NCBI GenBank assembly: GCA_963693365.1
Contig: CAVNZM010000002.1
Location: 10,286,328-10,350,327 of the forward strand
DNA length: 64,000 nucleotides
Reading direction: 5' to 3'
DNA from: Amoebidium appalachense
Taxonomy: Eukaryota; Protista; Ichthyosporea
The notes under the pieces are model-generated. The model ran no database searches and was not told where the DNA came from. It worked only from the letters and a program-made list of their open reading frames with translations. Shown here one piece after another: positions 2,660-11,339 of this stretch (position 1 is the first letter of the stretch; the number at the start of each line of letters is the position of its first letter). The translations under genes and the position numbers were made by a program.

Positions 2660-2795
2660 GTTGGGGTGACCTGTGTGCCACATGTGGGTGGCCATAGACT
2701 GCCAAGGCAATCTTCGCCATGCAAGTTCTCCATATGCAGCATGTGGGTGCCATTTTTGGCATTCAAGCTGCACAGAAACGGGCAGGTCACAGAGC
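2660..2795 (-). ncRNA. Candidate structured small ncRNA, copy 1 of 7
   Basis: Terminal stem GTGACCTG/CAGGTCAC and internal TGCAGC..TGCCA-AAAA-TGGCA..GCTGCA hairpin. Upstream motif (plus-strand TTGATTGTGGGA) at 2845-2856, 61 nt away. A T5 run follows the 3' end on the minus strand. Confidence 0.5.
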
Positions 2796-3395
2796 CGTGA
2801 GTGTGCACTGTGATCACATACATGTATATTGCGTTTATGGGTATTTGATTGTGGGATCAAAAAAAAGAAGAAGAAGAAAGGAAAAGAAGGCTGCATGGGT
2901 TTTCTTCTATCCGATGGTTTTTTAAATTCGTTCTCTTTTTCTTCTCTCTCTCTCTCTCTCTCTCTCTCTCTCTCTCTCCCCCCCCCCCCCCCCCCCCCCC
3001 CCCCCCCCCCCCCCCCCCCCCCCCCCCCCCCCCCCCCCCCCCCCCCCCCCCCCCCCGAGGGGAAGGGAGAGGAGGAATAAATAAAACCAGCAATCCAACA
3101 CCAATAAATTTGCACATTCTAAGAAGCATATAGCTACGCCAGCCCCCCCTCCCCCCATCCCCCCCCCCCCCCCCCCCCCCCCCCCCCCCCCCCCGCCCCT
3201 CAACAAAAAAACTTTGAAAAAGAGACACACACATTCGCGCGCGCGCACACCGGCACACACATGCACTCACGCACGCACACGCACACACACACCACACTTC
3301 AATGGGGTTCTGTCTTGTGTTACGACAGGACTACATGACACCGCATGTACAGTGGGCCGGACCGTTGAGAGAATGCTTGCTTACAGCTGTAATTT

Positions 3396-3575
3396 GTTGA
3401 GGTGGCCTTTGTGCCATAGCATGGTGAGAGGCAGCAAAAGACTAGCTCTCAGATGTGTTCACGCACAATCCGAATACACTCGGATCAGGGTGGCATGCGC
3501 TCTATATCTGCATATGGTGCAATGTTTGACAACCGAGCTGCAGTTGCATGAGTTATGATGGGCAGGTCACCCAAC
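3396..3575 (-). ncRNA. Candidate structured small ncRNA, copy 2 of 7
   Basis: Minus-strand 5' GTTGGGTGACCTGCCC pairs with 3' AGGCCACCTCAAC. Upstream motif TTGATTGCGGGA at 3627-3638 (63 nt). Flanking similarity to copy 4 extends several hundred bp. Confidence 0.5.
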
Positions 3576-4431
3576 CTTATAATCACCATTGTAGCACCGA
3601 ATATGTAAAATGCAGTTTCCGAATGTTTGATTGCGGGACGAAATATGTACCCCAGGCCAGCATTTTGAGTGTGCGCGTAGGTTGTGATGTCACCGAACAT
3701 ATGCATGCATAGTAAGATATCTTTGGTTAAAACCATCAAGGTGACTCGCACGTGTTGTGTAGCGAGTGTTTACTTATAGGAGGCCTTGGTAGCGAGCCCC
3801 TCAGCCCCAGTAACCAGTCCCATGCCCTCCCCCCCCCCCCCCCCCCCCATTCCCTGCCTCCCCTTCATCGGATCCCCCCCCCCCCCCCCCCCCCCCCCCC
3901 CCCCAAAAAACACACACACCGTATGCAAACGCACCTACACGCACGCATGTGCGCATGCCGAGCGTGCACACACACACGCACACACGCGCGCGCGCACACA
4001 CACACACACACACACACACACACACACACACACACACACACACACACACACATGCACATGCACATGCACACACATGCACACACACACGTGCACACAAATG
4101 CACACACGTGTGCGCGCGCACACACACACAGAGTCCACATTTTCGTAGGTGCCCTTGAAGTTCCCTTCTATCACTCCCTCTTGGGTTCGGACTACGTATA
4201 CAAGACATTACGAAAAAACATGATATCGCAGACATCCCGTAAGTAAGACGTATCAAAAAAGGAAAAATCACTCCGGCCGACAGGAAGCAAGTGGCGATTC
4301 GCGATCGGATTTTCATAAACCATCGAAAACCCCTAGAGTACTGGGGTAATACCGGATTGTGCAAGTAAGCCAATCGTCAGCGGGATCAATGTGAGATAAC
4401 TAAGTGTTAACTTTTTCTTTCGGCTTCAGGA

Positions 4432-4591
4432 GTTAGGGTGACCTGCATGATTCTGTGAGGATCAACAGAGCCACAATTGCTGCCCAACTTGGCAGCATGC
4501 TCTAAACTCACCCCTCTGCAGCATATGATGGTGCTTAAAATGGATGCACCGAGCTGCAGAGGATTGTGCCATGATGGGCAGGTCACCCAAC
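4432..4591 (-). ncRNA. Candidate structured small ncRNA, copy 3 of 7 (best folding)
   Basis: 5' GTTGGGTGACCTGC pairs with 3' GCAGGTCACCCTAAC (one bulge). Perfect 10-bp inner stem CCTCTGCAGC/GCTGCAGAGG (4513-4522, 4553-4562) and a second hairpin TGCTGCC/GGCAGCA. Upstream motif at 4641-4652 (61 nt). Confidence 0.6.
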
Positions 4592-4640
4592 CGTGTAATT
4601 ACACTAGAGCACAAAAGGGTGGATCGTGCTTTTGGAACTT

Positions 4641-4652
4641 TTGATTGTGGGA
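4641..4652 (-). promoter_or_regulatory. Putative snRNA-type upstream sequence element TCCC(A/G)CAATCAA (representative copy)
   Basis: The same motif occurs at 2845-2856, 3627-3638, 6268-6279, 7988-7999, 9028-9039 and 11288-11299, at near-constant distance from the hairpin. It resembles Dictyostelium DUSE (WCCCAYAA) and plant snRNA USE (RTCCCACATCG). Confidence 0.5.
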
Positions 4653-8978: not shown

Positions 8979-9959
8979 CGTGGGAAAGGACTGCAAAGCA
9001 CACTGATAGCAACTTTCTTTTTGATATTTGATTGTGGGATGATGTAGGAGTTTTGGCTAGCAACCTTGTAGACCCTCTAGATCTTGTGCCAATTCGGTAT
9101 CGCCGGATTCTGGCATCATGGTAATGATTCGATTAGTTAAGTACAGTATATGGAAGGCAAGTCAATCATGCTCAAAACAAATGTTATGTCAAAGGCATTA
9201 TATAGAATCATTCACGTGACAACATATCCTGAGTTTTTAAAAAGTGCTGGTTGCTCTTACAAGGACGACATGTATTCATCAATAAAACACCTACAAGAAA
9301 CGCATGAACCACAAAAAAAACATTCTTTGCTGAGCGTCTTTGCTGAGCGGTGCTTAATATGGAAGAGCCCGGGAGTAGAAGGGGGAGGGGGGGGGGGGGG
9401 GGGGGGGGGGGCAAAGATAACTGACCCGTTACGGGGTGTGGTTCGGAGTGTCTCTGTCGTCTGGGGGTAGTAGAGGGAAACTCAGTGGGTATGGCGATAC
9501 AGTAGCTGCTGCAGAGTGCGTGGAAGGAGGCGACTGTGTGCGGGGTGTGAGGCATTGTGCGTGTGTAATATCTACATCTCTCCCTTCCTTCCTTTAGGGT
9601 CTCTATCTCTATCTCCATCTTTCTCTATACCCCCCCCCCCCCCCCCCTCTCTATCCCTCTCTCGTTATCTATTTTTCTCTCTCTCTCTCTCCTCCCCCCC
9701 CCCCCCCCCCCCCCCCCCCCCCCACCCTCCCACCCCCCCCCCCCCCTCTCTCTCTCTCTCTCTCTCTCTCTCTCTCTCTCTCTCTCTCTCTTCGTTTTGG
9801 TTTTTTTGGGGGTTGGAGGGGGGGGGGGGGGGGAGAGGGGGAGGGGTATCCATTCATGAAACCAGGAAATATGCAAAGATACCTGTGAATTATAAACCCT
9901 TATTAGCCAGGACCTGGTTGAAACCCCCCCTTTCCCCCCCCCCCCTCCTCCTCCTCCTT

Positions 9960-10152
9960 TCTCCATTGGACCACCACAACAGGATTTCCCGAAGCACGAT
10001 TCCCGGCCTCCTTCCCTTCTCCCCCTCACCCCCACCCACAGTGGCGCCCCTTCCTCCTGAGTCCCCCCTTTTATCCATCCTCCCCCCCCCCCCCCCCCCC
10101 CCCTTTCTATGTGGATAACTTGGGGTTTTCCCTGCGGATGGACTTTCCTCAC
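9960..10152. repeat. Dispersed repeat, inverted copy at about 12784-12965
   Basis: ACTTGGGGTTTTCCCTGCGGATGGACTTTCCTCAC (10118-10150) matches the reverse complement of GTAAGGAAAGCCCATCATCAGGGAAGACCCAAGT (12784-12817). Similarity continues across homopolymer tracts. Confidence 0.65.
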
Positions 10153-10801
10153 GGTGCGTACTCTTTGTGTATGTGTGTTTTTTTTTGTTTTTATTATTAT
10201 TATTATTATTATTATTTTATGTTTTTTGTTGGGGAAAGGGGGGAAGAGGGGGGGGGGGGGGGGGGGGGGGGGGGCGGGAGGGGGGAGGGGGGGGGGGGAG
10301 CAGAATTTTCATCGTGCTTCCCGGTGTGAATTGTTTACCTCGTACCCCATAGGGCATCCCTCCCCCCCCCCCCCCCCCCCCCCCCCTCCCCCCCCCCCCA
10401 AGCCGCCGCCGCCTGCCCGCCGGCCTTCCCGCCGGCCTGCCCGCCTTCCCTCCCTCCATTGGGTTCTCCTGTCTTTCTGTCATGGACTGTGCGTGCAGCC
10501 TTTTTTTCTAAAGCTTGGATGGGTATTCAAGTCGTACGTGTGTAAATGGCCGTGGCAAGTGCTGAGGCTATGCATCCAACATTAGCCAACTTGCAGTCCT
10601 TCTAAACCCATGCTGGGAACGAACGGGGGTGGTGGTGGTGGGGGGGGGGGGGGGGGGGGGGGATGAAGGCTGGAGAGGGCTCAGTGACTACGTTAGGCCT
10701 AGATATCTGCACAGTTTGGTCACGGAAGAGTATAAAGCCGTTTCAAAATACTGTAGGCCCAAATGAGCCAGAACTTCATATCGCTCAATCGCTCCGCACA
10801 G

Positions 10802-10853
10802 TGTTGCGTTTTCTCCGATGTTGCGTTTTCTCCAATGTTGCGTTTTCTCCGAT
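10802..10853. repeat. 17-bp tandem repeat x3
   Basis: (TGTTGCGTTTTCTCC(G/A)A)3. Confidence 0.9.
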
Positions 10854-11100
10854 GGTGGGAGCCTCGGGAACCAGGGAGACGGCCTGGGGGAAAATTTGCC
10901 AGGAGAAAGTCTCATGTGACACCCGTGACCTATCATAGTCTGCCACCTACCGGTCACACACGTGTTCTAACAGTATGACGTGTCACTGAGCATTTGGGCG
11001 TCAATAAGCAAACTCTGAGGCTCAGTGGTGCATCTATTGCGCACCACCGTGACGACGTTTGCAGCCCGTTTGCAATCGTTCTTTAGTGCTAATGTAGCAT

Positions 11101-11238
11101 AGGGGTAACCCGTAAGTTATATCACGTACTTGCATGGCGATGCACCATCAGCTACGTAGTCGTCTGCAGCACATGGTGCCATACATGGCAACCAGCTGCA
11201 GCGATCTTACCATAATAAGTAGATTAAGTTCACCCACT
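11101..11238 (-). ncRNA. Candidate structured small ncRNA, copy 7 of 7
   Basis: GGGTGA/TTACCC terminal pairing and inner CTGCAGC..TGCCA-TGTA-TGGCA..GCTGCAG. Upstream motif GTGATTGTGGGA at 11288-11299 (61 nt). Confidence 0.5.
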
Positions 11239-11339
11239 CGTAAAATCACTGTGTGCACAGGCTATGGGAAAAATATTTTTTCGGTATGTGATTGTGGGAG
11301 AAAAGAAAAAGAATAATGCCCAAAAGCAATCTGGTCGGA

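Follow-up and report, generated by a model that had tools for sequence, protein, structure and literature searches.

The stretch of Amoebidium appalachense DNA analysed here (contig CAVNZM010000002.1, positions 10,286,328 to 10,350,327; 64,000 nt, referred to as the window) contains, between positions 2660 and 11299, a cluster of seven diverged copies of a structured element, each preceded by a conserved upstream element at a fixed distance, and, judging from the sequence, the cluster probably represents an undescribed family of small nuclear RNA (snRNA)-type non-coding RNA genes. The upstream element is new here, absent from the first-pass annotation of this DNA, and constitutes the strongest feature of the locus; being independent of folding, it lends support to that annotation's proposal of an undescribed minus-strand non-coding RNA family. 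The seven copies were confirmed at the coordinates originally proposed, all in the same orientation (minus strand), and comprise 130-185 nt with ca. 50% GC and pairwise identities of 45-75%:

2660..2795, minus strand: copy 1, putative RNA of 136 nt, with the outer terminal stem and the inner GG/CC pairs broken
3396..3575, minus strand: copy 2, putative RNA of 180 nt, within a duplicate of ca. 750 nt common to copy 4
4432..4591, minus strand: copy 3, putative RNA of 160 nt, with a perfect terminal stem and a variant top of the inner hairpin
6043..6226, minus strand: copy 4, putative RNA of 184 nt, lacking ca. 9 nt at the spacer/5' end relative to copy 2
7769..7937, minus strand: copy 5, putative RNA of 169 nt, its apical stem carrying U-A for C-G, a double change
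8849..8978, minus strand: copy 6, putative RNA of 130 nt, its apical stem carrying A-U for G-C, a double change
11101..11238, minus strand: copy 7, putative RNA of 138 nt, with the most diverged terminal stem and an intact inner hairpin

The motif TCCCRCAATYAA lies upstream of every copy on the minus strand, the distance from its first base to the start of the copy being 61, 63, 61, 53, 62, 61 and 61 nt in copies 1 to 7, respectively; the shorter spacing in copy 4 reflects the deletion of ca. 9 nt relative to its sister copy 2:

2844..2856, minus strand: conserved motif upstream of copy 1 (TCCCACAATCAAA), at a spacing of 61 nt
3626..3638, minus strand: conserved motif upstream of copy 2, at a spacing of 63 nt
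4640..4652, minus strand: conserved motif upstream of copy 3, at a spacing of 61 nt
6267..6279, minus strand: conserved motif upstream of copy 4, at a spacing of 53 nt
7987..7999, minus strand: conserved motif upstream of copy 5, at a spacing of 62 nt
9027..9039, minus strand: conserved motif upstream of copy 6, at a spacing of 61 nt
11287..11299, minus strand: conserved motif upstream of copy 7, at a spacing of 61 nt

The core of this element, TCCCRCAAT, occurs seven times in the window, exclusively on the minus strand and each time preceding a copy, compared with a mean of 1.83 occurrences in shuffled sequence, where none of 100 shuffles reaches seven. By block, the mean pairwise identity is highest in the motif (91%), followed by the 5' stem arm (79%), the inner hairpin (71%) and the 3' arm (64%); it is lower in the spacer (46%), in variable regions 1 (before the inner hairpin, 37%) and 2 (after it, 40%), and in the upstream (34%) and downstream (30%) flanks. 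The spacer between motif and copy is thus kept in length and not in sequence, and a conserved block at a fixed distance across such a spacer is the pattern of an external promoter.

The same architecture, a conserved element at a fixed distance upstream, is characteristic of snRNA-type genes driven by an upstream sequence element (USE) or proximal sequence element (PSE), and is found at all seven copies (61-63 nt in six, 53 nt in one). PMC8287931 (Table 1) gives the USE consensuses TCCCAWCATC, RTCCCWTA, GNCCCAYW, and ACCCATAA, and reports that USE is bound by SNAPc, while the Dictyostelium upstream sequence element (DUSE) is placed ca. 60 nt upstream of Class I RNA starts (PMC7919456). By resemblance to USE and DUSE, the TCCCRCAAT-type motif can with good confidence be regarded as the snRNA upstream element of this organism, a likeness that fixes the strand and favours independent genes. 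If so, (i) TCCCRCAATCAA is expected at about -60 of Amoebidium's own U1/U2/U4/U5/U6 genes, the Rfam search having returned no snRNA gene in the window; (ii) this would be the first snRNA upstream element for an ichthyosporean and a key to hidden RNAs, including telomerase RNA, the USE-based search of PMC8287931 being applicable to ichthyosporean genomes for telomerase RNA and others; and (iii) Holozoa, as the locus suggests, have likewise retained the CCCA-type element seen in plants, algae, ciliates and social amoebae. A further word, ATCACARC, stands upstream of the main motif in copies 2, 3, 4 and 7, at distances of 50, 93, 50 and 57 nt, respectively (minus strand; 3688, 4745, 6329 and 11356); these are four of its eight matches in the window, and it is a possible distal promoter element.

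The homology of the copies is supported by leave-one-out searches, in which a profile built from six copies recovers the seventh in 7/7 runs (E 5e-19 to 8e-11), the strongest match elsewhere in the window reaching E 3.9. Neither these profiles nor a covariance model of all seven copies, whose next independent match scores 8.2 bits, disclosed an eighth copy in the 64 kb, in agreement with the first-pass annotation; inspection of a weak but recurrent profile match at 35659-35704 (E 0.03-0.9) and of a near-motif at 38414 revealed no copy at either site. The description of the surrounding DNA as gene-free also holds as far as tested, given that none of the 29 open reading frames (ORFs) of at least 70 residues and ordinary composition between 2374 and 11779 reaches the Pfam cut-off.

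The Rfam search proposed earlier returned 0 matches at gathering score in the 64 kb. When extended to E 10 over 2500-11500, among the 150 matches listed only one falls on a copy, a chance SNORD69 match on the plus strand of copy 3 (E 3.6), the remaining ones falling on low-complexity or repeat DNA, and none of the microRNA (miRNA) families among them overlaps a copy. Pattern searches of metagenome contigs gave 0 matches with a strict pattern including the promoter and 119 loci, in 42/64 parts of the collection, with a relaxed one, and viral contigs gave 6 and 33 loci. These 158 loci were rejected as chance, the model scoring them at best 15.5 bits compared with 94-133 bits for the training copies, and the upstream motif occurs in none of the 125 loci comprising the 119 metagenome and 6 viral ones. 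In the open-licence literature, main texts and available portions thereof, no description of the family was found, although genome annotation files could list the loci. The excerpts of the Amoebidium genome preprint (10.1101/2024.01.08.574619) contain 0 occurrences each of MITE, SINE and non-coding, and the non-coding RNAs mentioned in the available sections on unicellular animal relatives are miRNAs and intergenic long non-coding RNAs, or lincRNAs (PMC11286789, PMC6206976). Mid-size non-coding RNAs of these organisms are almost unexplored, and a family with its own promoter, structural selection and no Rfam match can be tested directly in a cultured organism.

The predicted fold is multi-branched, closed by an unbroken terminal helix of 9-13 bp, and includes a conserved inner hairpin comprising TGCAGC...GCTGCA, an asymmetric internal loop, GG/CC, a bulged T, a 5-bp stem, and a 4-nt loop. 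This hairpin is found at 2735-2772, 3509-3542, 4517-4558, 6157-6193, 7862-7901 and 8913-8949 in copies 1 to 6, and in copy 7 as follows:

11165..11200, minus strand: conserved inner hairpin of copy 7

The core of the terminal stem, nine pairs in seven copies, amounts to 63 cells, of which 49 are Watson-Crick, nine G-U, one A-C, and four other mismatches. The preference for G-U changes, with copy 2 as the counter-example, was borne out as nine G-U against the one A-C (p 0.02 by cells). An inverted repeat acting only in DNA would give equal numbers of G-T and A-C, so that the G-U excess points to minus-strand RNA, as does the promoter; the changed positions lie outside CpG, and the wobbles are not explained by CpG decay. 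Other structural claims of the first-pass annotation stood in part: only copies 2, 3 and 5 show the single pyrimidine bulge clearly; the hairpin with a 4-nt loop is present in 6/7 copies, whereas the top of copy 3 differs (GGTGC/GCACC, 11-nt loop); and the term covarying was an overstatement, only two changes, one each in the apical stems of copies 5 and 6, being truly double-sided.

In the MAFFT alignment 87.7% of 179 cells are paired, a value as high in 1/500 shuffles and compared with 30-44% in slid controls. Folding z-scores of copies 1 to 7 are -3.3, -1.0, -5.0, -2.6, -2.7, -2.9 and -3.3 on the minus strand and -2.2, -1.6, -6.3, +0.3, -1.0, -2.6 and -3.0 on the plus strand, lower on the minus strand in 5/7 copies. 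The mean pair probability of the terminal stem is 0.68-1.0 in six copies and 0.24 in copy 7, and that of the inner helix 0.98-1.0 in copies 1, 3, 6 and 7. The structure is thus supported, by covariation only thinly: with seven sequences and two true double changes, covariation is too thin as sole support. Both the terminal and inner helices keep their sequence besides their pairing, which suggests protein-binding sites.

A consensus TATA word is present in 1/7 spacers, and a T-run (at least four T within 60 nt downstream) follows 1/7 copies, namely copy 1. In the USE/PSE promoters of humans and green algae, TATA directs RNA polymerase III (Pol III) and its absence RNA polymerase II (Pol II) (PMC6004067, PMC8287931), which makes Pol II the likelier polymerase here; by this analogy, the putative RNAs are rather likely to be Pol II products. 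A possible 3' signal is a TG(N)AGCA-like word lying 3-10 nt past the end of 5/7 copies (background 0.06 per 30 nt).

Local duplication of DNA, the promoter included, enlarged the cluster, as shown for copies 2 and 4, which lie inside a duplicate of ca. 750 nt that is 67% identical. Within it, the RNA part retains 139/177 identical positions with 8 gap columns and the upstream motif 13/14, whereas the flanks retain 173/250 with 76 gap columns (RNA part versus flanks, p 0.036 for identity and 2e-9 for gaps); being more alike and less gapped than its flanks, the element is under purifying selection. Copies 1, 4 and 7 may be impaired. Pieces common to the spacers flanking copy 6 (8171-8425 and 10325-10609) represent a trace of further local duplication, and a degenerate short-unit array in both orientations, hairpin-forming, occupies 7247-7620 between copies 4 and 5.

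Contigs from sequencing runs, whose libraries carry no record, were compared for 420-3860, a region covering copies 1 and 2. X9, X12 and X11 are RNA, as the neighbouring gene appears spliced in them, and in none of them does a long contig cover copy 2 or the greater part of copy 1, a result that carries no weight as to expression, short structured RNAs being often lost. Low-depth contigs of the same runs cover 2209-2644, the long ones ending at or before 2644, short of the 3' end of copy 1, where the DNA of X8 continues; they are a weak hint of read-through from copy 1 or from the convergent gene. At 2650, near the 3' end of copy 1, an X11 contig matches and then continues into sequence absent from the window, possibly a paralogue elsewhere or chance. 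In the DNA run X8, copies 1 and 2 are each spanned by a single long contig and nothing piles up at 80% likeness, which hints weakly against a young family of high copy number, depth not being copy number; as a strain comparison, X8 shows 0 differences in copies 1 and 2 and 12 between 706 and 1986, the flanks in the same contigs having just one.

Among known classes, the Pol II snRNA genes (U1, U2, U4, U5) share with the copies a CCCA-type element at a fixed distance and the lack of both TATA and T-run (PMC8287931, PMC6004067); unlike them, the copies have no Sm site (pattern RAU(3-6)GR, 0/7), no spliceosomal Rfam match, and paired ends rather than a free 5' end. Sm-class snRNA, spliced leader RNA and U7 were accordingly rejected, with Sm site 0/7 and no Rfam match at gathering score. 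Dictyostelium Class I RNAs are likewise lineage-specific, multi-copy, intergenic, clustered and rarely identical, with an element ca. 60 nt upstream of the start, 5' and 3' ends that pair, and a variable interior; they comprise, however, ca. 60 nt of 32-41% GC with a 6-bp stem of variable sequence and an unpaired 11-nt motif, many with a T-run (PMC7919456), whereas the copies measure 130-185 nt at ca. 50% GC, are multi-branched, conserve the sequence of their helices, and mostly have no T-run. Membership in Class I was rejected on size, stem, 11-nt motif and the lack of an Rfam match. Small nucleolar RNAs of the C/D or H/ACA type were also rejected, conserved boxes being absent (box C 0/7; box D and H-like words sporadic), as was telomerase RNA, the copies having no single-stranded template of more than one telomere repeat, with a CCCTAA-type 7-mer in 1/7, inside a stem, for the assumed Amoebidium repeat.

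The Y RNAs and nematode stem-bulge RNAs (sbRNAs) offer an alternative identity, in that the copies could be highly diverged members of this group, or of the vault RNAs, that Rfam missed, acting in Ro60 binding or replication initiation. They have in common clustering, an external promoter, paired ends with a bulged pyrimidine, a GUG-CAC trio in the terminal helix and a variable interior (PMC4726728), and GUG is present in 7/7 5' arms, paired with CAC in copies 1-3 and in wobble variants in copies 4-7. The Ro60 site nevertheless consists of a single bulged C and a 3-nt bulge on the opposite strand (PMC4726728), while in the copies both bulges lie on the 3' strand; UUAUC is found in 0/7, the poly-U end is missing in 6/7, the length of 130-185 nt exceeds 100 +/- 20 nt, a second conserved hairpin is present, and Rfam returned no match. 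Membership was rejected on Ro60 geometry, UUAUC and poly-U end, and the family resembles Class I or Y RNAs in gene layout while being a member of neither. Searches with box A/B-like consensus patterns for an internal promoter gave 0/7, and no tRNA gene was found. Vault RNAs, whose terminal stem, variable interior and small clusters are also features of the copies, were rejected together with tRNA-derived short interspersed nuclear elements (SINEs), box A and box B being found in 0/7 and the T-run missing in 6/7; a diverged Y, sbRNA or vault identity is improbable overall. An origin as remains of small transposons, namely miniature inverted-repeat transposable elements (MITEs), SINEs or Helitron-type elements whose pairing ends are terminal inverted repeats acting in DNA, is unlikely: although the ends do form inverted repeats, the genome is repeat-rich (PMC11286789), and the upstream motif starts with TC, homology runs 61 nt past the inverted ends into a more conserved block, the seven copies face one way with none in the other 53 kb, and no target-site duplication longer than 2 nt, A-tail or box A/B occurs at or in any of them, on which grounds a MITE was rejected. 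Helitron ends begin with TC; the base preceding TC is A in only 2/7 copies. Moreover, the element, unlike its flanks, has been purged of indels, the changes lean towards G-U on a single strand, and X8 shows no pile-up over copies 1 and 2, with the same proviso on depth.

Precursors of miRNA-like or small interfering RNA-like guides, with the terminal stem cut by Drosha or Dicer, are an unlikely, minor rival. The 5' arm is indeed more conserved than the 3' arm (79% versus 64%), copies 2 and 3 share an identical 21-nt 5' stretch while being otherwise 54% alike, and homologues of Drosha, Pasha, Dicer and AGO are reported in ichthyosporeans including Amoebidium (10.1101/076190), which was not among the organisms whose small RNAs were sequenced in PMC6206976. 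Against this, the fold is multi-branched with its short terminal helix, the arm asymmetry follows from composition, most wobble-tolerant positions being located in the 3' arm, which is rich in C, no explanation is provided for the inner hairpin, conserved to an equal degree, and the Rfam matches listed include no miRNA family on a copy. A once-functional family in which most or all copies are now silent pseudogenes would account for the damage in copy 1 (broken outer stem), copy 4 (9-nt loss before the start) and copy 7 (weak terminal stem), yet the 9-nt core motif is intact in 7/7 and the spacing kept in 6/7 despite spacers and flanks diverged to 30-46%, and this alternative is assigned a low probability.

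Compared with these rivals, a reading of the locus as independently transcribed snRNA-type genes for end-paired, multi-branched RNAs that likely serve as protein-binding scaffolds is favoured with fair probability. The upstream element would probably be bound by SNAPc, setting the start near GTTGGG; Pol II would then, somewhat less surely, transcribe the putative RNA, with the TG(N)AGCA-like downstream signal perhaps setting its 3' end; and the 130-185-nt product is predicted to close by the 9-13-bp terminal stem, from which the inner hairpin and two or three variable hairpins branch off. The two sequence-conserved helices might bind a shared core protein, while contacts specific to each copy might come from the variable hairpins, on the model of Y RNA and Dictyostelium Class I ribonucleoproteins (RNPs), a step for and against which the case is about equal. 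More tentatively, and with some doubt, the family could represent a new class of small nuclear RNPs, with a core protein of their own and with end-paired, Sm-less RNAs made by Pol II, that has expanded into a gene cluster in a single-celled relative of animals; if true, this class would be a holozoan counterpart of the Dictyostelium Class I RNAs or a pre-animal root of Y-like RNAs.

Several observations weigh against this interpretation. The upstream motif was derived from these same seven copies, so that its count is post hoc and the evidential weight falls on the spacing and on the contrast with the spacer, and its assignment to the snRNA elements is one of resemblance; the TG(N)AGCA-like signal is also post hoc, with two of its five carriers being sister copies, and the scaffold role, evenly poised, is drawn by analogy. 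Counted as distinct changes, G-U against A-C is 6 to 1 (p 0.125), and no double change occurs in the terminal stem among the seven copies. Five pairs were scored with a double change, a number reached by 64/500 shuffles, three of them belonging to a weak helix and one cell arising from misaligned copy 3. Copies 2 and 3 fold better as plus strand, single-sequence folding of copies 2, 4 and 5 is not dominated by the inner helix (mean pair probability 0.35, 0.00 and 0.15), and no homologue was found outside the locus in the metagenome or viral contigs.

The cluster is adjoined by a convergent spliced gene at 684-2120 (plus strand; intron 1142-1558 in X9, X12 and X11) encoding a short, Ala/Lys/Glu-rich product, and by a tandem array of five 50-nt units, ca. 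95% alike, at 2282-2522. On the other side, 7 kb on, a gene ending at 18572 (18572-23501, minus strand) is of the ERT1/AcuK type, with a fungal Zn2Cys6 cluster and PAS_13, in an ichthyosporean; a protein search with its 21738-22418 exon gave no match. An intron-split small gene at 26987-28032 (plus strand) has a weak monooxygenase-family match (E 0.0075) and gives the impression of a bacterial-type gene. A p24/EMP24 gene follows at 30094-35115 (minus strand), with an exon 98% identical to Amoebidium parasiticum P022122 (EukProt EP00123) and 64% identical to an Ichthyophonus hoferi protein, which places the window in Amoebidium and bears out the ichthyosporean guess of the first-pass annotation. 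The gene at 36788-40972 (plus strand) encodes two RRMs and presumably recalls the NONO/SFPQ family, and at 50778-51669 a stretch of ca. 355 nt stands in tandem, seen as repeated ORF text.

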